The translations under genes were made by a program, and so were the position numbers. From positions 768,603 to 832,602 of the forward strand of contig CAVWCS010000005.1 in the NCBI GenBank assembly GCA_963753525.1: a DNA stretch of 64,000 nt, given 5' to 3'. The notes under the pieces were generated by a model. The model saw only the letters and a program-made list of their open reading frames with translations, was not told the origin of the DNA and searched no databases. The DNA is from an uncultured Actinomycetes bacterium (GTDB lineage: Bacteria > Actinomycetota > Thermoleophilia > Gaiellales > Gaiellaceae). Positions 2,100-59,329 of this stretch are shown here, one piece after another (position 1 is the stretch's first letter; every line of letters begins with the position of its first letter).

Positions 2100-2887
2100 T
2101 GACTGAAGAGAACGAGAACATCGAAGAGACAACAGAGGCCCCGGTGGAACCGGAGTCGACGGAAGAGACTCCGGCCGAGGCAGAGGTTCCGGCCGAGGAG
2201 TCCGCCGCCGAGGAAGCGCCGGCTGACGAGCCCGCCGCCGAAGAGGCGCCTGAGCCCGTGGCCGAAGAGCCGGCCGCGGAGCCGGAGGCTGCCGTCGCAG
2301 AGGAAGCTCCCGCAGAGGAAGCTCCGCCTGAAGAGCCGGTCGCCGAGGTGCCTGCACCTGAGGTCGAAAGCGGAGGCGAGGTTTCGGACGAGCCCGGCCG
2401 CGATCCGGCGGCTTCGCCGCCGGATCTTGCAGCCATCGCGGAGGAAACTCCTGCGGCTGAGGTCGAGACGGCGCCTGCCGCTGAAGCGGCTCCGGCTGCT
2501 CCTCAAGCTCAGTCGGAACCGAAGAAGAAGAGCAAGCGCCTCCCGCGCAGTCTGCGTCCGCAGAAGACGCGTCCGTCGCGCCCCGTTGCGACCGGCGACC
2601 GCAAGCCCATCGTTCGCCTGCCGAAGCCCGAGCACGACCGCGGTCGTCGCCAGGAGCGGCGCGGCGTCGTCGTCTCGAGCGCGATGGATAAGACGATCGT
2701 CGTCAAGGTCGACGTGATCACCTCGCACCAGAGGTACAAGAAGGTCATCCGCCGCAGCGTGAAGTTCCACGCGCATGACGAGCAGAACGCCGCGAGCGTC
2801 GGCGACATCGTCCGCATCATCGAGACGCGGCCGCTCTCGAAGACGAAGCACTGGCGGCTCGCCGAGATCGTCGAGGCGGCGAAATGA
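2099..2887 (+). CDS. rpsQ: 30S ribosomal protein S17 with ~180-aa acidic Pro/Glu/Ala-rich N-terminal extension
   Basis: The C-terminal 80 aa form the S17 core: [66 protein letters not shown] 2099 overlaps the rpmC stop (TGATGA). No alternative start lies before the core apart from one internal Met. Confidence 0.9.
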
Positions 2888-5731: not shown

Positions 5732-6498
5732 GTGGTATCGAGTACACCGAGACGCGCGAGCTCAAAGAGCGCGTCGTCGAGATCAACCGCGTCGCCAAGG
5801 TCGTCAAGGGCGGCCGGCGCTTCTCCTTCACGGCGCTTGTCGTCGTGGGGGACGAGGTCGACCGCGTCGGCCTCGGCTACGGCAAGGCGCGCGAGGTGCC
5901 TCTCGCGATCACGAAGGCCGTCGAGGACGCGAAGAAGAACCTCTTCACGATCCCCAAGCACGGCTCGACGATCACGCACGAGGTACTCGGCCGCTTCGAC
6001 GCGGCTCGCGTCATGCTCCGGCCCGCCTCGGAGGGAACCGGCGTCATCGCCGGCGGCGGCGTGCGCGCGGTGCTCGAGCTCGGCGGCGTCCGCAACGTTC
6101 TCGCGAAGAGCCTCGGCACGACGAACCCGATCAACATGGCGAAGGCGACTGTCGCCGCGCTCCAGGATCTGCGCCGGCCCGAGGATGTCGCGAGGATCCG
6201 CGGCAAGCGGATCAGCGAGGTGCTGCCCTTCTCTGAGGCAGCTCCGGTCGAGACCGAAGCTGAGGCTGCAAGCGTCGCCGGCGAAGCCGACGACGCGCGG
6301 CCGGACTCAGTCGAGACCTCAATGGACTCAGTCAAGGAAGTGCAGCCTGTAGTCGACACCGAGCCTGTCGCCGAGGAGGCTCCGGTCGAGGAGCCGGTCG
6401 CCGAGGCCGTTCCGACCGAGGAGCCTGCCGCCGAGGAACCACCTGCCGAAGAGCACAAGAAGCGGCTCTCGCTCCGGCGCAAGAAGGACGACGCCTAG
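5728..6498 (+). CDS. rpsE: 30S ribosomal protein S5 with ~90-aa acidic C-terminal tail
   Basis: Inside ORF 5644-6498. TTG 5728 lies 9 nt after GAAGGAGG and overlaps the rplR stop. The protein reads [41 protein letters not shown]..., the S5 core. The tail reads ...[16 protein letters not shown]...[27 protein letters not shown]. Confidence 0.9.
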
Positions 6499-9159: not shown

Positions 9160-9989
9160 TCATCCGAAAGTCCGCCGCTGAGATCGAGGGGATCGCGCGC
9201 GCCGGCACGCTTCTTGCCGAGACGCTCGCGCTCGTCGGCGAGCACCTCGAGCCTGGGGTGACGATGCGCGAGCTCGACCGGATCGCCGACGAGCACCTCG
9301 CCGCGAACGGGGCGACGCCGACCTCGAAGGGCTACAAAGGCTTCCCCGCAGCGCTCTGCATCTCGCCGAACGCGATGGTCGTGCACGGGATCCCGAGCGA
9401 CTACGCAGCACGCGAGGGCGACCTCATCTCGCTCGACCTCGGCGTGACGCTGGACGGCCTCGTCGCCGACAGCGCCGTCACGCTCCCGGTCGGCGAGATC
9501 TCACCCGAGGCCCAGCGGCTGCTCGACGTCTGCCAGGAGGCGCTCGCCGCCGGCATCGACCAGGCGCGCCCGGGCAACCATCTCTCCGACATCTCGCACG
9601 CCGTCCAGGTCGTCGTCGAGGACGCCGGCTTCTCGGTCGTCCGCAGCCTCGTCGGGCACGGCGTCGGCCGCTCGTACCACGAAGACCCGCAGATCCCGAA
9701 CTACGGCCCGCCCGGCCGCGGCCCCGTTCTGCAGGAAGGGATGACGCTCGCGATCGAGCCGATGATCACCGCCGGCGAGCCGGACGTCTACGTTCACGCC
9801 GACGAGTGGTCGATCTCGTCGGTCGACGAGTCGCTCGCGGCCCATTTCGAGCACACAGTGGCGATCGTGGCCGACGGCCCGCGGATCCTGACTTCGCTGG
9901 AAACGTCGGCGGCCAAGCCGCCGACGCCCGGCAGGCAGACCGCGCCGCCTGCGGCGGCGCCCGGCGGAAAAGCGCCTTTGCTACGATGA
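9156..9989 (+). CDS. map: Type I methionine aminopeptidase with ~30-aa Pro/Ala-rich C-terminal tail
   Basis: 277 aa, ...MVVHGIPSDY..GDLISLDLG...VGHGVGRSYHEDPQIPNY...LAIEPMI...HFEHTV. The metal-ligand pattern is typical of MetAP. Confidence 0.95.
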   Translation: MIIRKSAAEIEGIARAGTLLAETLALVGEHLEPGVTMRELDRIADEHLAANGATPTSKGYKGFPAALCISPNAMVVHGIPSDYAAREGDLISLDLGVTLDGLVADSAVTLPVGEISPEAQRLLDVCQEALAAGIDQARPGNHLSDISHAVQVVVEDAGFSVVRSLVGHGVGRSYHEDPQIPNYGPPGRGPVLQEGMTLAIEPMITAGEPDVYVHADEWSISSVDESLAAHFEHTVAIVADGPRILTSLETSAAKPPTPGRQTAPPAAAPGGKAPLLR

Positions 9990-24334: not shown

Positions 24335-25252
24335 TGACGGAGAGCAAGCCGCGTCTTGACGGATTCGACGATCGCGAGCTCGTCGTGGACGGCGCGCGGC
24401 TGCGTTACGCGGTTGGAGGACCACCGGCGCCACAGGCGCAGGGGTCTCTCCGCCGGGCGTCGTCGGCTTTGCCTACGACGCTTCCAGCTTCACCCCCGGG
24501 GCTCGTGCTCGTGCACGGCCTCGGCGGCACGATCGAGAACTGGCGCGGGCTCGCGCCCGCGCTCGCGCGGCGCCACCGTGTCCTCGTTCCCGACCTGCCG
24601 GGGCACGGGCACTCCGAGCCGTTGCCCGAGGCCGCGCACCTCGACGACTTCTCCGACGCGGTCTTGGCGATGGCCGAGGCGGAGGGGATCGGCAGCGCCG
24701 TGTGGATCGGCCACTCACTCGGCGGCACGGTTGCGCTCCGCGCCGCGGTAAGGAAGCCTGACGCAGTGCGCGGGCATCGTCCTCGCCGCGGCAGCCGGGA
24801 TCGGCTCATCGACGCGCCTCGGCCGCGTCACCGTCACGCTGATGGGGCTCGCCCAGCCCGGCAAGGCGATCGCTCCGTTCCGGCACGCGCTCGCCGGCTC
24901 GCGCCTCGGGCGGCGCCTCGCGTTCGGCTGGTGGGGTGTCGGCGACGCCGACGCGCTCGAGCCCGAGCTCGCGGAGGGCTTCTTCGAAGGACCCGCGCAT
25001 CATACGAAGACACGCCAGGCGGGGCGCGCGCTCCTCGCCACCGATCCGCTCGACGGACTGGAGCAGATCGCGTGCCCGGTGCTCTGCCTCTGGGGCGCGA
25101 CCGACAAGTGGGTGACGCTCGACGACGGGGTCGAGTACGCGCGCCGCCTCGGCGCACCGCTGCGGACGATCGCCGGGTGCGGCCATCTCCTGATCGGCGA
25201 GCGCCCCGAGGTCTGTCTTGCCGCGATCGAGGAGTTCGTCGCTCGCCTTTGA
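24331..25252 (+). CDS. Alpha/beta-fold hydrolase; one apparent +1 frame break near 24772
   Basis: ORF 24331-25260 is good up to ...LVLVHGLGGTIENW...VPDLPGHGHS...WIGHSLGGTVALRAAVRKPDAVR. The frame then continues in ORF 24842-25252: ...GIVLAAAAGIGS...CPVLCLWGATDKWV...IAGCGHLLIGERPE. The raw sequence CGCGGGCATC has one extra G. Confidence 0.85.
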
Positions 25253-25678: not shown

Positions 25679-26743
<1,065 letters not shown>

Positions 26744-26746
<3 letters not shown>

Positions 26747-26868
26747 CTCGCGAGTGCTGCGCACTCGCTTCCCAGCAAAGCCCTACAGCACGGAGCCGAC
26801 CGGAGACCGCGCTCTCCGGTCGGCGCCGTTCGATTGACAGCGAGCAAGTCCGCAGGACTTGCGAGCTA
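26744..26868 (+). repeat. Structured intergenic repeat, copy C (3' half of the family plus a 5' terminal hairpin)
   Basis: Starts at the TAG stop of mreB. Hairpins: GCGAGTGC-TGC-GCACTCGC (26750-26768), GCCGACCGGAGA-CCGCGC-TCTCCGGTCGGC (26795-26824) and GCAAGTCC-GCA-GGACTTGC (26844-26862). The ends are TAGCTCGCGAG / CTTGCGAGCTA. Confidence 0.75.
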
Positions 26869-26878
26869 ATCTAGGGCG

Positions 26879-30378: not shown

Positions 30379-31563
30379 ATGCTCGAATACGCGGGATCAC
30401 AGAGAGCGGGACGGCGCGAGCGCGAGGCGCCGCACCTCCTTGCCGTCGTGCGCTCGCTCGACTGGATCCTCGTGATCAGCCTCGCTGCTCTCCTCGTCGT
30501 GGGGCTATGGGGGATCGGAGGCGTGACGAGCCACGACATTTCGGGCAATCCGAACTACTTCCTCGACCGGCAGATCCTCTACGCCGCGATCGGCGGGATC
30601 GTGCTCGTCGGGGCTGCGCTCGTCGACCCGGATCTCTACCGCCGCTACTGGCGCGTCATCTTCGGTGGCATCTCGGGTCTCATCGCGGTCGTCTTCCTCG
30701 CGGGTCATGCGGCGAGGGGCTCGACGCGCTGGATCAGCCTCGGCTTCTTCACCTTCCAGCCGTCGGAGTTCGGGAAGCTCCTCGTCGTCCTCGCGCTTGC
30801 CGGGCTGCTCGCCGAGCGGCAGGGGGCGATCGGGCAGTGGAGGACGACGCTCAGGGTGCTGCTCTTCGGGGCGGTGCCGGTCATGCTCGTGTTCATCCAG
30901 CCGGATCTCGGCACGGCGCTCGTCTACATCGCTGCGCTGGGGGCGATGCTCTTCGTCGCGGGCACGCCGTGGCGCCACATCGTGACGCTCGGGACGATCG
31001 TCGTGCTCCTCGTCGTCGGTGTCCTCTGGGCCGGCCCCGCCGTCGGCATTACGGTCCTCAAGGGCTACCAGCAGCAGCGCTTGACGTGCTTCTTGCACCC
31101 GCAGACGTGTCCCGCCGCCGCCGGCTACAACCTCATTCAGGCAAAGATCGCGGTCGGGGCCGGCGGGATCAGAGGTCAAGGCGTGAACGGCGCGTCGCAG
31201 AACAATTCCGGTTTCCTCCCCGCCAGCAGCACCGACTTCGCCTTCGCGGCCTTCGCAGAGCAGCGCGGCTTCGTCGGCGCCGTGATCCTCCTCGGGCTCT
31301 ATCTGCTCGTGCTCTGGAGAGGCCTCCGCGTAGTGACGGTGGCGCGCGACCTCTTCTCGGCCGTCGTCGCCGGCGGGATTGTCCTCGCGCTCTTCTTTCA
31401 GATCTTCGTGAACGTCGGCATGACGATGGCAATCGCGCCGATCACCGGCATCCCGCTGCCGTTCGTCAGCGTCGGCGGCTCGGCGATGATCGCCAACCTC
31501 GCCGCGATGGGCGTCCTGCTCGCGATCCACGCCCGCGGCCGCGCTTCTCGTCGCCGGCGGTAG
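30379..31563 (+). CDS. rodA: Rod shape-determining protein RodA (SEDS family glycosyltransferase)
   Basis: 394 aa polytopic protein with ...RWISLGFFTFQPSEFGKL...FIQPDLGTAL...GYQQQRL...GGIRGQG...LPASSTDFAFAAFAEQ.GF, the SEDS motifs. Confidence 0.93.
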   Translation: MLEYAGSQRAGRREREAPHLLAVVRSLDWILVISLAALLVVGLWGIGGVTSHDISGNPNYFLDRQILYAAIGGIVLVGAALVDPDLYRRYWRVIFGGISGLIAVVFLAGHAARGSTRWISLGFFTFQPSEFGKLLVVLALAGLLAERQGAIGQWRTTLRVLLFGAVPVMLVFIQPDLGTALVYIAALGAMLFVAGTPWRHIVTLGTIVVLLVVGVLWAGPAVGITVLKGYQQQRLTCFLHPQTCPAAAGYNLIQAKIAVGAGGIRGQGVNGASQNNSGFLPASSTDFAFAAFAEQRGFVGAVILLGLYLLVLWRGLRVVTVARDLFSAVVAGGIVLALFFQIFVNVGMTMAIAPITGIPLPFVSVGGSAMIANLAAMGVLLAIHARGRASRRRR

Positions 31564-31752
31564 CTCGCGGACTCGACGGCCGGAGGCTAAGACAGCGCGA
31601 AGCGCGGCTTAGTCGCAGGCTCTCCCACTCCCCGGCGCGCGCCGTAGGCGCTCGCCGCTGCGGGTAACGAGGTCTCACGTAGGCGCGGAAGACCGCGCTC
31701 TTCCGCGCCGGAGTTCCCTCAACAGCGAGCGAGTCCGCAGGACTCGCGAGCT
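31561..31752 (+). repeat. Structured intergenic repeat, copy A (full length, ~192 nt)
   Basis: Starts at the TAG stop of rodA and ends at the stop of convergent ORF 31752-31946. It aligns along its whole length with the reverse complement of 51137-51319. Hairpins lie at 31683-31708 and 31729-31747. Confidence 0.8.
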
Positions 31753-31946
31753 CAGGCTGCGGCCGGCCGCAGCCTCGCGCGGCGGGCGCGGATCGCGCGG
31801 AGGCGCTGCGACAGCCGGGCCCACGCCCATGGCTCGATCTCGTGATAGCGGGTCTCCGCCTGGCTCCGCGTCGCCTCGAGGTACTCGAACCATGCGTCGG
31901 CCTCTTCGATCATCAGGAGCTCTTCTGCTTGACGCTTTGCCGCCAC
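31752..31946 (-). CDS. Small hypothetical protein (64 aa)
   Basis: GTG start preceded by GGGAGGTG. The protein reads MAAKRQAEELLMIEEADAWFEYLEATRSQAETRYHEIEPWAWARLSQRLRAIRARRARLRPAAA. No family recognised. Confidence 0.45.
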   Translation of the reverse strand: MAAKRQAEELLMIEEADAWFEYLEATRSQAETRYHEIEPWAWARLSQRLRAIRARRARLRPAAA

Positions 31947-32192
31947 ACTTCACCTCCCGTCGTGAATGGGCGGGATCCTAGGTCCGGGACCGGACGGAGG
32001 CGTCGCCGCTGAGCCTGCAAGCGTCGCCGGCCGAGCCGGCGACGCGCGGGCAAAGGACGGGGTCGCCGTTGGCGGCCCGGGGGCACTGCTACCCTGCCCT
32101 TCGAGGCATTCCATGCTTTCCACTGACAACAACGAGCGCGCGCGGGTCCAGTACTGGGCCGCGGCTGCGCGCCACCCCGAAGGAGTTTCTCT

Positions 32193-34972
32193 TTGCCTTG
32201 GTTCCGATTCCGGAAGAAATCTTCCGATGACCAGCGCGCGGACAACGCGCGTGAGCTCGAGTCCAGGCCCGAGCCCGAGCTAGCCCCCGCTGCCGCAGAC
32301 GCGGCGGCACCCGAATCCAGCGATCCCACAAAGCCGAAGCGCCGGCGCGGCAGTCGCGGCGGACGCGGGCGCAAGAAGCCCGGCACCGCTCCCGCCGGCG
32401 CAACCGGCGCGGCCGCCACTCCCGAGCGGAAAGAAGGCGGGAGGCAGCCCGCCGGTTCTGGCCGCGCGTCGTCGGCTTCGCCGGCGGCGCCTGGCAAGCA
32501 GCTGTCGCAGCGGCAGGAACGCCGCCGCGACCAGTCCTCCCAGCAGCGCCGCCGCCGCGAGCCGCAGCGCCGCGCTCCGCTCCCCGCCGCGAAGCGCGAG
32601 CTGATCGTCTCGGTCGACGTCGGCGAGAAACGCGTCGCCGTTCTCGAGGACGGCCAAGTTGCCGAGGTCTATCTCGAGCGTCCCGACCGCCGCTCGATCG
32701 CGGGCAACATCTACCTCGGCCAGGTCGACAACGTTCTGCCGGGAATGGAGGCTGCGTTCGTCGAGATCGGCCTCGAGAAGAACGGCTTCCTCTACGTCGA
32801 CGAGATCGTCGGCCCGGAGATCGAGCGAGGCCACGGCCGCAAGATCCAGGACCTGATCAAGCGCGGCGAGACGCTCCTCGTCCAGGCGGTCAAGGATCCG
32901 ATGAAGACGAAGGGCGCGCGGCTCACGACCCAGATCTCGCTGCCCGGCCGCTTCGTCGTGCTCGTGCCGCAGGGCGAAGGGCTAGGTGTGTCGCGCCGGC
33001 TCGACGACGACGAGCGCAACCGGCTGAAGGACATCCTCAAGCGCCTGAACGTCAAGGAGGGCGGCGTCATTGTTCGCACGGCCGCCGAGGGCGCGTCCGA
33101 GGAGGACATCGAGCGCGACCTCGTCTTCCTGCAGCGGCTCTGGAAATCGATCCAGGCGCAGGCGAAGGCCGCGAGCGCGCCGGAGCTCGTCTACCAGGAG
33201 GCCGAGCTGCCGCTCCGAGTCGTCCGCGACCTCTTCACCGGCGACTTCGAGAAGGCGTACATCGACGACGAGCGCACCCACAGGCGGATCGTCGGCTACC
33301 TCAAGAAGACGTCCCCGCACATGGTCGAGCGCGTCGTCCGCTATCGCGAGAAGGCGCCGCTCATGGAGACGTTCGGCGTCGACCAGGAGATCCGCTCGAC
33401 GATCGGCCGGCGCGTCGATCTCCCGTCCGGCGGCTACCTCATCTTCGACTACGCCGAGGCATTCACCGTCATCGACGTCAACACGGGCCGCTTCGTCGGC
33501 GGGCGTGGAAAGAACTCCGGCGGACGGCTCGAGGACACGATCACGAAGAACAACCTCGAGGCGGTGAAGGAAGTCGTCCGCCAGCTCCGGCTCCGCGACA
33601 TCGGCGGGATCATCGTCATCGACTTCATCGACATGGCGAACCCGAAGAACCGCGCCGCGGTCGAAGAGGCGCTGCGCAACGAGCTCGAGCGCGACCGGAC
33701 GAAGACGTACGTCGTCGAGATCTCCCCGCTCGGCCTCGTCGAGATGACGCGCCAGAACGTCACCGACGGCCCGCGCGAGATCATGACCCGCAAGTGCCCG
33801 ACGTGCGGCGGCGACGGGATCGTCTACTCCGAGGCCTCCGCCGCGATCGACGTCGAGCGGCGCCTGCGCGCGCTCGCGGCAGGCTCGCGCTCCCAGGCGT
33901 TCCGCATCGAGCTTGCCGATCCGATCGCCAGCGCGCTCGTCGGCCCCGGCGCGCGGAGGCTGATCGAGCTCGAGGCGGTGACGAAGAAGCGGTTCTTCCT
34001 CTCCGGCAAGCCCGAGACGCACCTCGACCACTTCGTCGTCCTCTCCGAGGGCAAGCTCGCCGACCTCGCGCCGGCCACCTCGGTGGAGGAGGGCGCGGAG
34101 CTGATGATCGAGCTCGGTCGAGATCGATCGCTATGACGGCTCTGCGGCGGTCGGCAAGCTCCGACGGTCTCGAGGTCGTCGTCGCCGAGGCAGCGACCCT
34201 CGTCGGGAAGCGCCTCAAGGTTCGCGTCGAGCGCGTCCTCGACGGCCGCGCCTACGCGGTGCCCACGAGGAAGACGAAGGCCGCGGCCGAGCCGCTGACC
34301 GCCGAGGCGGAGGCCGAGAAGCCGACCCGCAAGCCGCCCGTGCGCAAGGGTGCCGCGGGCGCGACGACGGTCGAGGAGCCGGACGAGGACGTCGTGGCCG
34401 ACGCCGAGCTCGAGGACGAGCCCGAGATCGCGGAGGTCGCCGAGGTCGCTGCGGAAGGCGACGAGGCCGCTGACATTCCCGTGAAGAGGAAGACGAGGCG
34501 AGGCTCGCGCGGCGGACGGAACCGGAAGAAGACTCCGGCCTCTGCTACGACCGACGGCGAGGCTGCATCCGAGTCGGAAACGACCGTCACGATCCACCTG
34601 CCGGACGACGACCTTGGGCGCAAGCCGAAGGTCGAGAAGGAGCCTGCGGCGAGCGCGGAACCGGCGGCGGAGGCCGAGGAGCCGGAGGCGGAGACCGAGG
34701 TGGCCGACGGTGACGAGGCTCCGGCACCGAAGAAGAAGACGAGGCGTGGCTCGCGCGGCGGGCGCAACCGCAAGAAGAAGCCTGCTGCCGCGACGAATGG
34801 CAGCGAGCCGGAATCCGACGCGGAGCCGGAGCCTGCACTCGAGCCGGATGAAAGTGGCGAGGTCTCGACTGAGCCCGGCCGCGCTCCGGCGGCTGTGCCG
34901 CCGGAGCTTGCAGCCAATTGGGAGTACGTCCCCATGTCCGAGTGGGCGGACGAAGTCGAGAGGAATCGTTAG
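32193..34972 (+). CDS. rne: Ribonuclease E/G family endoribonuclease (RNase E-like) with Arg-rich N- and C-terminal segments; two apparent +1 frame breaks near 34116 and 34162
   Basis: TTG start 7 nt after AAGGAG. S1 and catalytic core: RELIVSVDVGEKRVAVLEDGQVAEVYLER..IAGNIYLGQVDNVLPGMEAAFVEIG....DFIDM. Zn-link: CPTCGGDG. ORF 32193-34136 ends ...ELMIEL. Frame +1 reads VEIDRYDGSAAVGKL. Frame +2 (ORF 33794-34972) reads DGLEVVVAEAATLVGKRLKVRVERVLDGRAYA..., followed by an acidic and Arg-rich tail. The gene length is 3n+2. Confidence 0.88.
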
Positions 34973-40948: not shown

Positions 40949-41021
40949 GGGGCCGTAGCTCAGCTGGGAGAGCGTTCGGCTGGCAGCCGAAAGGTCAGGG
41001 GTTCGATCCCCCTCGGCTCCA
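40949..41021 (+). tRNA. tRNA-Ala (anticodon GGC)
   Basis: GGGGCCGTAGCTCAGCTGGGAGAGCGTTCGGCTGGCAGCCGAAAGGTCAGGGGTTCGATCCCCCTCGGCTCCA. It folds as a cloverleaf with the G3:U70 identity pair, anticodon loop CTGGCAG and a T-loop GGTTCGATCC. CCA is not encoded. Confidence 0.93.
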
Positions 41022-50727: not shown

Positions 50728-51135
50728 ATGTCTGTAGAGACATCGTCGATGTTCGAGCGCGTTATCCAGGATCACCTCGCGCTCAAGGAACGCAACGCGC
50801 GGCTCGACGGCAACATGCCGATTGAGCGCTACAAGGACGAGGATCCCTTCGATAACCATCCGCTCTTCAAGACCGAAGAGCAGGCGCGGATCGAGGAGAC
50901 GATGGACGGAGTCGATCCCGACTTCAGCGACGAGACCCTCGACGACATCGGGGTTGGCGTGTGGCCGGGCCAGCAGCAGGCCGCGGCGCCGGACACGTGG
51001 AGCGAGGAGCCGCGCGCGGCGACGCTGCCGCCCGAGGTCGAGGACGCGACTGCCGAGAACGCAGCGCCGGAGGTCGAGGAGACGACCGGCTTCTGGAACA
51101 CCGGCGGCGCCCGCGACTTCGACTGGGGCGACTAA
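50728..51135 (+). CDS. Acidic hypothetical protein (135 aa)
   Basis: ATG 50728 lies 10 nt after GGAGG, inside ORF 50494-51135. The protein reads MSVETSSMFERVIQDHLALKERNARLDGNMPIERYKDEDPFDNHPLFKTEEQARIEETMDGVDPDF... and ends FDWGD. No family recognised. Confidence 0.55.
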   Translation: MSVETSSMFERVIQDHLALKERNARLDGNMPIERYKDEDPFDNHPLFKTEEQARIEETMDGVDPDFSDETLDDIGVGVWPGQQQAAAPDTWSEEPRAATLPPEVEDATAENAAPEVEETTGFWNTGGARDFDWGD

Positions 51136-51136
51136 G

Positions 51137-51319
51137 TAGCTTGCCGGTCTCGCTCGCTGAACTAAGGAACTCGGGCCGCCAGAGCGCGGTCTGGCGGCCC
51201 TCGTGCTGAGAGCTCGTTTGCCCGCCGCGGCAGGCGCCTGCGGCGCGCGCCGGGGAGCGGGAGAGCCTGCGGCTAAGCCCCGCTGCGCGGAGCCTTAGCC
51301 TCCGGCCGGAGGCGAGTTA
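51137..51319 (-). repeat. Structured intergenic repeat, copy B (full length, reverse orientation)
   Basis: The reverse complement aligns with 31561-31752, sharing blocks GGCCGGAGGCTAAG, CGCAGGCTCTCCC, CTCCCCGGCGCGCGCCG, GAGTTCC and CAGCGAGCGAG. Hairpin GGGCCGCCAGA-CCGCGC-TCTGGCGGCCC is the reverse complement of 51173-51200. The hairpin-2 region is replaced by ACCGGCA. Confidence 0.78.
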
Positions 51320-51355
51320 CGCCGTGGCGGTGATCGTGATCCCGCCGCGTGGTTT

Positions 51356-51562
51356 TTGCGTGAGCGTGACTGTGACGCCGCTTCGGTCGAGCTCGCGGAC
51401 TTCTCTCAGCCCGATGAGGGGACGGCGATGGAGGCGTGGTACGCGCACTCGCGCGGCAAGCCCGTCGTCGCGTACACCGGCAGCGCATGGGCGCATCCGT
51501 GGACGGTCTACGTGGCCGCGAGCATCCACGCGGAGCTGGTCGACGCCGTCGCGGCGCTCTAG
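51356..51562 (+). pseudogene. Possible 3' remnant of a nucleoside 2-deoxyribosyltransferase-like gene
   Basis: The 68 aa ORF reads ...VELADFSQPDEGTAMEAWYAHSRGKPVVAYTGSAWAHPW... This resembles the C-terminal D.GT..E.GYA...KPV region of that fold. The expected ~70 N-terminal residues are absent, and the sequence immediately upstream is repeat copy B. Confidence 0.3.
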
Positions 51563-59256: not shown

Positions 59257-59329
59257 TGGAGCGTACCGGGATCGAACCGGTGACCTCCGGCTTGCAAAGC
59301 CGGCGCTCTCCCAGCTGAGCTAACGCCCC
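59257..59329 (-). tRNA. tRNA-Ala (anticodon UGC)
   Basis: The reverse complement is GGGGCGTTAGCTCAGCTGGGAGAGCGCCGGCTTTGCAAGCCGGAGGTCACCGGTTCGATCCCGGTACGCTCCA. It has the G3:U70 pair and anticodon loop TTTGCAA. CCA is not encoded. Confidence 0.93.

Follow-up and report, generated by a model that had tools for sequence, protein, structure and literature searches.

What are the three related, hairpin-rich, non-coding sequences that lie behind genes in a 64,000-nt stretch of an uncultured Gaiellaceae bacterium (contig CAVWCS010000005.1, positions 768,603 to 832,602; hereafter the window): RNA genes, control elements of the host or mobile DNA? An initial annotation of the window had placed copies of one repeat, A at 31561-31752 (+ strand), B at 51137-51319 (− strand) and C at 26744-26868 (+ strand), had taken ~190 nt as the family unit, and had offered as candidates a miniature transposable element with inverted repeats (MITE), an element resembling repetitive extragenic palindromes (REPs) or bacterial interspersed mosaic elements (BIMEs), and a structured small-RNA family. 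The copies are present at these coordinates and the three-copy repeat is real, but the ~190-nt form is not its unit; it is a deletion derivative of a doublet of ~450 nt. The repeat belongs to a dispersed family, not described before, of GC-rich palindromic DNA elements that carry several hairpins each. The family to which A, B and C belong is probably non-autonomous mobile, selfish DNA of the REPIN (paired, inverted REPs) or MITE kind, with hairpins that would be recognised and maintained at the level of DNA.

The architecture of the family is evident from its long copies. Full-length elements, ~450 nt in size, consist of two outward-facing arms of ~93 nt around an asymmetric core. They are inverted doublets: the ~93-nt arm makes up the 3′ half of A, and its reverse complement makes up the left part of a long copy. 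Each arm comprises, in order, CACGGAGC, hairpin 1, GCGGAGTTCC and a terminal hairpin 2 ending ...GCGAGCTA. The core, which is modular with at least three types of inner module, contributes five further hairpins, giving ~nine hairpins per full element. The 37 arm pairs that lie close together are (−,+) without exception, with their termini outward and none in the opposite arrangement, and element lengths range from 123 to 509 nt with a mode of 445-458 nt. In most complete copies the termini are TAGCTCGCG...CGCGAGCTA; each end has TA, and direct repeats longer than this are not seen. The terminal hairpin occurs in three alternative forms (AGCGAGCG...CGCGAGCT, CCGGGCGAAGAGC...GCTCTTCGCCCGG and CCTCGGAAACGC...GCGTTTCCGAGG), and 67 of 79 arms carry a tandem GA/GA internal loop in this hairpin. 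The distal hexamer is inverted (GCTCGC, not GCGAGC; arm alignment columns 96-97) in 10 of the 79 arms, generating a perfect stem. Alignment of 18 full-length copies displayed a mean column identity of 75%, and their consensus fold contains 111 predicted pairs, 43 of which show compensatory changes; it also pairs the conserved boxes GGAACT/AGTTCC and TCCGTGC/GCACGGA. The single-strand fold of one full copy has a z of −11.3.

The family is widespread within one order. One genome per species was scanned for an exact pattern, which fixes the loop and the closing pairs in most arms; the scan identified more than 113 stretches among the matches listed, mostly in metagenome-assembled genomes (MAGs) labelled Gaiellaceae, Gaiellales or ‘uncultured Actinomycetes', with several stretches per MAG being common. 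About 30 pattern matches were chance occurrences in unrelated phyla, and the single match in viral contigs had an atypical spacing. A covariance-model search of relatives, which the initial annotation had proposed together with a covariation test, revealed many further copies: the arm model, built from 79 aligned arms, matched 143 arms in 86 loci, and the scan of genome collections as a whole gives at least 142 arms in 93 loci from Gaiellales MAGs. The arm counts rest on locus fragments, ~1.4 Mb in total. The family has so far been found only in Gaiellales (Thermoleophilia, Actinomycetota).

Against this background A, B and C are internal-deletion derivatives that retain the family termini, not the basic unit. 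Copy A (31561-31752, +) is a 192-nt single-arm (‘type i') deletion derivative, scores 80.2 bits with the arm model, and exactly fills the gap between the stop codon of rodA and that of a convergent open reading frame (ORF) of 64 amino acids. Its left terminus, TAGCTCGCG (31561-31569, +), is the leftover of the left terminal hairpin, the stump retained in A being TAGCTCGCGGACTCG. The TAG at this terminus is, as annotated, the rodA stop (31561-31563; rodA, of the FtsW/RodA/SpoVE family by Pfam, 30379-31563, +). The inner hairpin GGCTAAG...CTTAGTC (31585-31614, +) is a module common to B and the full-length copies (full-length alignment columns 169-215). Hairpin 1, GGCGCGGAAGA-CCGCGC-TCTTCCGCGCC (31682-31709, +), had been correctly located and its sequence correctly given, save that the stem in A is one G-C pair longer than the 31683-31708 assigned to it. 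Terminal hairpin 2, AGC-GA-GCGAGTCC-GCA-GGACTCGC-GA-GCT, extends over 31724-31752 (+), more than had been claimed for it, while the reported compensation between A and C, G>A matched by C>T, is borne out. The final T of this hairpin is the first base of TCA (31752-31754), the TGA stop of the convergent ORF (31752-31946, −), which is kept beside rodA in relatives and overlaps the last base of A.

Copy B (51137-51319, −), a 183-nt single-arm derivative that has lost the 3′ half of hairpin 2 and scores 59.3 bits, lies between two stops, the TAA (51133-51135) of an ORF on the + strand and that of an apparent C-terminal queF remnant (51320-51322); its hairpin 1 is GGGCCGCCAGA-CCGCGC-TCTGGCGGCCC (51173-51200, −). 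A aligns end to end with the reverse complement of B, the shared blocks being visible as described, and a repeat finder reports 91 nt at 87% identity between the two. Both belong to a single-arm subtype that has an inner module of its own and the hairpin GGCCGGAGGCTAAG...CTTAGCC. Copy C (26744-26868, +), which had been viewed as A lacking its 5′ half, is in fact a minimal symmetric derivative of 125 nt that the arm model matches on both strands (92.9 bits on +, 50.5 bits on −). It is composed of a left terminal hairpin, GCGAGTGC-TGC-GCACTCGC (26750-26768, +), one hairpin 1, GCCGACCGGAGA-CCGCGC-TCTCCGGTCGGC (26795-26824, +), and a right terminal hairpin 2, AGC-GA-GCAAGTCC-GCA-GGACTTGC-GA-GCT plus a terminal A (26839-26868, +). 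The 5′ TAG of C is the stop codon of mreB (26744-26746; mreB, 25691-26746, +); Pfam supports the identities of mreB, mreC, PBP2 and rodA. The TA-flanked inverted ends that had been noted do exist, but the proposed terminal inverted repeat (TIR), TA-GCTCGCG...CGCGAGC-TA, is just one strand of the terminal hairpin. In the window the three copies gave E values of 6e-19 to 2e-11 with the arm model; after these and the opposite strand of C, the next best site, at 18.6 bits, is the reverse strand of the hairpin in A. No fourth copy was detected in the window with the model's filters off, with patterns for the alternative terminal hairpins or with a reversed-arm pattern.

The surroundings of copy B display a peculiarity of their own. 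Only the last ~25 codons of queF (ending ...ELDRSGVTVTLTQKPRGGITITATA before the stop) are present beside it, at 51320-51400 (−). The Gaiellaceae locus L036, to which the window flanks are 94% similar, has a complete queF at the place of the remnant, and the window sequence upstream of the remnant differs. Comparison of the two sequences suggests a rearrangement beside copy B.

The stems of the family vary freely and nevertheless remain paired. In the 79-arm alignment, 98.8% of cells are standard pairs, and double changes occur at 13 of the 22 pairs, amounting to 316 cells compared with 94 in shuffles; the covariation is thus strong, and when the structures were slid by 1-3 columns pairing was just 34-45%. 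Hairpin-1 stems come in 40 versions among the 79 arms, and hairpin-2 cores in 36. In the window, as the initial annotation had observed, A, B and C have three different hairpin-1 stems, each perfectly complementary around AGA-CCGCGC-TCT. The invariance of the CCGCGC loop and the AGA/TCT closing pairs holds for the window but not for the family, as 26 arms found without the exact pattern display the loops CCACGC, TCGCAC and TCGCAA, have AAA/TTT as a variant of the closing pairs and still pair at 95%. Within an element, the left arm has the hairpin-1 stem of the right arm in only 1 of 37 pairs and its hairpin-2 stem in 6 of 37, showing that the conserved feature is each local hairpin and not the identity of the two ends. 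Identical stem ‘alleles' recur across genomes. The full elements represented by the 37 close pairs always bear the arm in both orientations, and copies occur in either orientation. Among the cells that are not Watson-Crick pairs, which are rare, G-T accounts for 20, A-C for 13 and other combinations for 53.

Covariation of this strength, accompanied by conserved unpaired motifs, is what would be expected of a host-functional transcribed element in which RNA structure is selected, such as a bidirectional terminator without a U-tract, a stabiliser of mRNA 3′ ends, or a cis-regulatory or small RNA; copy A also folds better as RNA than do its shuffles (z = −2.75). We nevertheless regard this explanation as unlikely. 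We read such covariation as unlike that of an RNA gene, because G-T pairs are not preferred to A-C mismatches, the arm is present in both orientations, the two arms of an element differ and stem alleles recur. Instead, we infer that constraint acts on the DNA, or on both strands, to keep the hairpins. A structured small-RNA family, one of the candidates of the initial annotation, fits poorly as the primary reading, given the Watson-Crick-only pairing, the arm in both orientations and the copies in either orientation, although a secondary role of this kind may exist. Watson-Crick-only palindromes with conserved flanking motifs in extragenic locations also recall arrays of binding sites at which a host protein (a nucleoid-associated protein, gyrase or a recombinase) acts on palindromic duplexes or cruciforms, a role that has been proposed for BIME and REP sequences. 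Freely varying stem sequence argues against such sequence-specific recognition of double-stranded DNA, and outward doublets with defined ends, derivatives that keep their termini, and presence or absence of the element are left unexplained, making this proposal very improbable.

The location of the elements is strongly biased towards gene 3′ ends. With coding strands called by the GC3>GC1>GC2 rule, of 110 arm termini, 81 point at a gene's 3′ end and 16 at a 5′ end, and complete elements are found between convergent genes in 17 instances, between tandem genes in 12 and between divergent genes in one. The terminal CTA provides the TAG stop codon in 63 of the 79 incoming genes with a locatable stop (63 of the 110 termini). 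Elements positioned right behind stop codons, mostly between convergent genes, are consistent with a function at the 3′ end of transcripts; the hairpins are probably transcribed, as genes run in from both sides, and may act as 3′-end structures that lack a U-tract. These hairpins, however, are accompanied by no classical terminator, as had been concluded: no T-run follows any of them in the window, and a terminator scan returned no site at A or C. The absence of a known Rfam motif was likewise confirmed, the window yielding two tRNAs only at the gathering thresholds of Rfam 15, and four loci with full-length copies contained nothing relevant at E≤1. Since close relatives have these gene pairs without the element, a role at 3′ ends does not serve best as the primary explanation; any influence on the 3′ ends of mRNAs is probably a side effect.

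This variation in occupancy was apparent when 80 metagenome loci with rodA orthologues were compared. Only the closest relatives have an arm behind rodA: L114 and L115, at 88-89% amino-acid identity, and L117 and L118, at 75%. In L152 (84%) the site, with the same right flank, contains only a 31-nt solo terminal hairpin (TAGCGAGCGAGTGCTGCGCACTCGCGAGCTC, L152 906-940), which probably arose by deletion between two terminal palindromes. In L124 and L130 (75-76%) the same convergent gene pair is present with no element, and many more distant rodA loci align straight over the joined flanks. A second site, beside a CBS gene, lacks the element in L033 but has it in L024, L080 and L085. The mreB site also varies, containing C in the window and an arm beside the mreB stop in L039 and L114. 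In these two loci mreB and mreC are ~1.6 kb apart (L114 4898-6500; L039 2178-3855), compared with just the 125-nt C in the window (26744-26878). The 1.6-kb insert of L114 consists of an element arm, a frameshifted HIT-family pseudogene and a GNAT acetyltransferase gene, and on the mreC side the flank of the window is 99% identical to that of L114. An exact-protein look-up of MreB for strain variants returned no record.

Where an orthologous site is occupied in several species, the occupants appear to turn over. In 24 orthologous arm pairs 35.5% of stem positions and 7.1% of non-stem positions differ, compared with 40% and 9.3%, respectively, in random arm pairs, and 91 double changes that preserve Watson-Crick pairing were counted against 17 other changes. 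Stem divergence is bimodal: L114 and L115 differ at 0 of 30 positions, while L011 and L050 differ at 16 of 29 even though their flanks are 95% identical and their element cores ~90%. This looks like hairpin-cassette replacement or gene conversion, or copy turnover, rather than slow compensatory drift. For the explanation in terms of a host-functional RNA, occupancy across species at some orthologous sites is favourable. It is countered by the many relatives that have the same gene pairs and no element, by the variety of forms that one site may hold (31 nt, 125 nt, 192 nt or more than 400 nt), and by the replacement of stems at orthologous sites faster than the flanks diverge, in addition to the lack of an Rfam family and of a U-tract.

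Taken in general, the mobile-repeat interpretation of the initial annotation, whether as a MITE or as a REP/BIME-like element, holds: there are many copies, sites with and without the element, derivatives that keep their termini (C, A and the solo hairpin of L152, within the 123-509 nt size range) and a consistent position at gene 3′ ends. The two kinds of mobile DNA differ, however, in how the ends would be recognised. In a classical TA-duplicating MITE the element would be moved as double-stranded DNA by a DDE transposase of the IS630/Tc1-mariner type. TAG and TAA stops would be among the few TA sites at which insertion is tolerated, and an element that starts with G would regenerate TAG. 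Terminal inverted repeats and ~93-nt inverted arms, TA at both ends of the TAGCTCGCG...CGCGAGCTA termini with no longer direct repeat, the sizes and internal-deletion derivatives, and the lack of any ORF-bearing copy all fit this model, as does the A that follows the right-hand TA of C, as if the stop had originally been TAA. Where one terminus supplies a stop, the model requires G or A beyond the TA at the other end; the counts there, C7 G6 A2 T2, follow the background, although this test has no discriminating power. The flanks do not match the CTAG preference of IS630, the stems of the two ends usually differ, covariation without sequence conservation is unlike a sequence-specific double-stranded TIR binding site, and no cognate transposase was found among 93 arm-bearing loci. 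Both the double-stranded mechanism and the origin of the stop codons that it implies are doubtful.

We favour recognition of hairpin-shaped ends because stem sequence is free while structure and unpaired motifs are conserved, because the stems at an element's two ends are not the same in sequence, and because pairing is Watson-Crick only. The mobilising enzyme would recognise the hairpin-shaped ends together with the conserved unpaired motifs, and may use a single-strand mechanism like that of REPs and their RAYT (REP-associated tyrosine transposase) enzymes. In such a scheme the element would be gained and lost at orthologous sites, leaving behind internal-deletion derivatives and solo terminal hairpins, and would survive only in short gaps at gene 3′ ends, where its terminal TAG (CTA on the other strand) would frequently become the stop codon of the abutting gene.

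Several observations weigh against the view that the family is mobile DNA of this kind. No transposase of any type was found in or beside any copy, and among the 93 arm-bearing loci no ORF flanked by arms resembles one. In the ~1.4 Mb of Gaiellales loci a strict Y1/RAYT motif was unmatched, although a single-copy gene is easily missed in such a sample, and tblastn with Escherichia coli RayT gave no match in these fragments. Near-identical copies were not observed, the best pair being 87% identical and pairs within one MAG 82-84%, and thus no recent transposition or burst is demonstrated. There is no base-exact empty site, as L124, L130 and L033 are too diverged for base-for-base alignment. Finally, template-switch repair of palindromes can restore complementarity without any selection.

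Three candidates for an autonomous element or its enzyme were considered and rejected. In L063 the arms, 1.2 kb apart, enclose an OmpR-type response regulator (identified by eye) and a small ORF, with no transposase. The 1.6-kb insert at the mreB site of L114 and L039 likewise encodes no transposase, its content being the HIT pseudogene and the GNAT gene, while the sole match to a relaxed Y1 motif, in L105, is an unrelated chance locus.

The favoured reading, DNA of the REPIN/MITE kind, is consistent with several features of known repeats. Like the REP/BIME and REPIN/RAYT systems of Enterobacteria and Pseudomonas, which use Y1 HUH enzymes, the Gaiellales family consists of many GC-rich extragenic palindromes that are paired in inverted orientation and located at gene 3′ ends, have stems that vary yet stay complementary, and persist at orthologous sites. 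REPs are 20-40 nt and REPINs ~100 nt, whereas the Gaiellales arm is ~93 nt with two hairpins and the doublet ~450 nt with ~nine. In contrast to the GTAG/CGTC tag of REPs, only TAG is conserved, the preceding base being approximately G 13, C 9, A 2 and T 2 in a hand count; by tag and by size the element falls outside REPs in the strict sense. The hosts also differ, Gaiellales being Actinomycetota; the REPIN/RAYT papers found by literature search contain no mention of Actinobacteria, and the search yielded no paper on repeats of Gaiella or Thermoleophilia.

Mobile repeats of other kinds share some of these properties. The TA-flanked MITEs of bacteria, including the Correia elements of Neisseria and IS630-derived elements, have TIRs, TA ends, sizes of 100-500 nt and internal-deletion variants, and are intergenic and co-transcribed with their neighbours. 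The Gaiellales elements resemble them in inverted ends, TA at both of these, size, deletion variants and intergenic location, but differ in that the inverted ends are hairpins with stems that vary between the two ends, and in that no parent insertion sequence was found. ERIC/IRU sequences of enterobacteria and the TRIT-type 3′ hairpins of mycobacteria are imperfect palindromes in transcribed intergenic regions, with size variants generated by insertion or deletion, and hairpins without a U-tract behind genes. The Gaiellales element is unrelated to these in sequence, is much larger and modular, and has TA-ended termini. PATE sequences derived from IS200/IS605, which lack terminal inverted repeats and have asymmetric ends, subterminal hairpins and a conserved target of four or five nucleotides at the left end only, were also considered and rejected, as the Gaiellales ends are symmetric inverted repeats in which the hairpin starts from base 2, with no conserved flank beyond TA. 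A closer parallel to the stop codons is provided by GTAG REPs that end in TAG, which supply stop codons to flanking ORFs (Di Nocera et al., PMC3733652), as the Gaiellales termini do. TIR families, some of them double-palindromic, flank RAYT-like ‘TIRYT' genes (Di Nocera et al. 2013, PMC3733652). They share with the Gaiellales family long inverted repeats with self-complementary tracts and occur as moderately abundant dispersed families, often as dimers, although no tyrosine transposase gene flanked by Gaiellales arms was found and the two are not related in sequence.

The window contains other repeats. A second, unrelated hairpin repeat of ~60 nt, with the form GAGGTCTCGACTGAGCCCGGCCGCGC-[stem]-loop-[stem′]-GCTTGCAGCC, is located at 2375-2435 (+), 34856-34916 (+), 6264-6320 (−), 9896-9959 (−), 24425-24488 (+), 32008-32049 (−) and possibly 32457-32493. 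Its stems, too, differ but stay complementary (TCCGGCGGC/GCCGCCGGA vs CGTCGCCGGC/GCCGGCGACG), and one copy lies upstream of an RNase E/G gene. Coding repeats with a 15-nt period, rich in GAG, GCC and CCG codons, extend over 124-2450 and 6344-6454, apparently encoding tracts rich in Glu, Pro and Ala. The tRNA genes at 40949-41021 (+) and 59257-59329 (−) are 71% complementary over 87 nt, flanks included.

The combination of a ~450-nt doublet with nine hairpins, cassette-like stems, termini that supply a stop codon in 63 of 110 cases and the host lineage is unusual. The Thermoleophilia, including the Gaiellales, abound in soil, and hardly any genetics exists for them. The family offers a marker for annotation and for assembly breaks in Gaiellales MAGs, and its presence or absence at particular sites provides natural markers. 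As many TAG stops and C-termini in Gaiellales genomes are set by a repeat, annotation of these genomes requires caution. More generally, more than 140 copies display stem covariation that is not evidence for an RNA gene, which cautions against covariation-based RNA discovery in GC-rich genomes. It is a tentative suggestion that these elements constitute, in a deep-branching actinobacterial order, a REPIN-like population that persists vertically and replicates inside the genome, with a dedicated hairpin-recognising transposase or recombinase. Such a population might conceivably be distinguished by its giant nine-hairpin doublet and by stem cassettes exchanged faster than the flanks diverge, and, in a similarly speculative vein, by the systematic donation to host genes of stop codons and, probably, bidirectional terminators. 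If this is true, a REPIN-like system would exist outside the Proteobacteria, where REPIN/RAYT systems have been studied, and if the mobilising enzyme proved to be a Y1 transposase that recognises hairpins, a new phylum would be added to REPIN biology.

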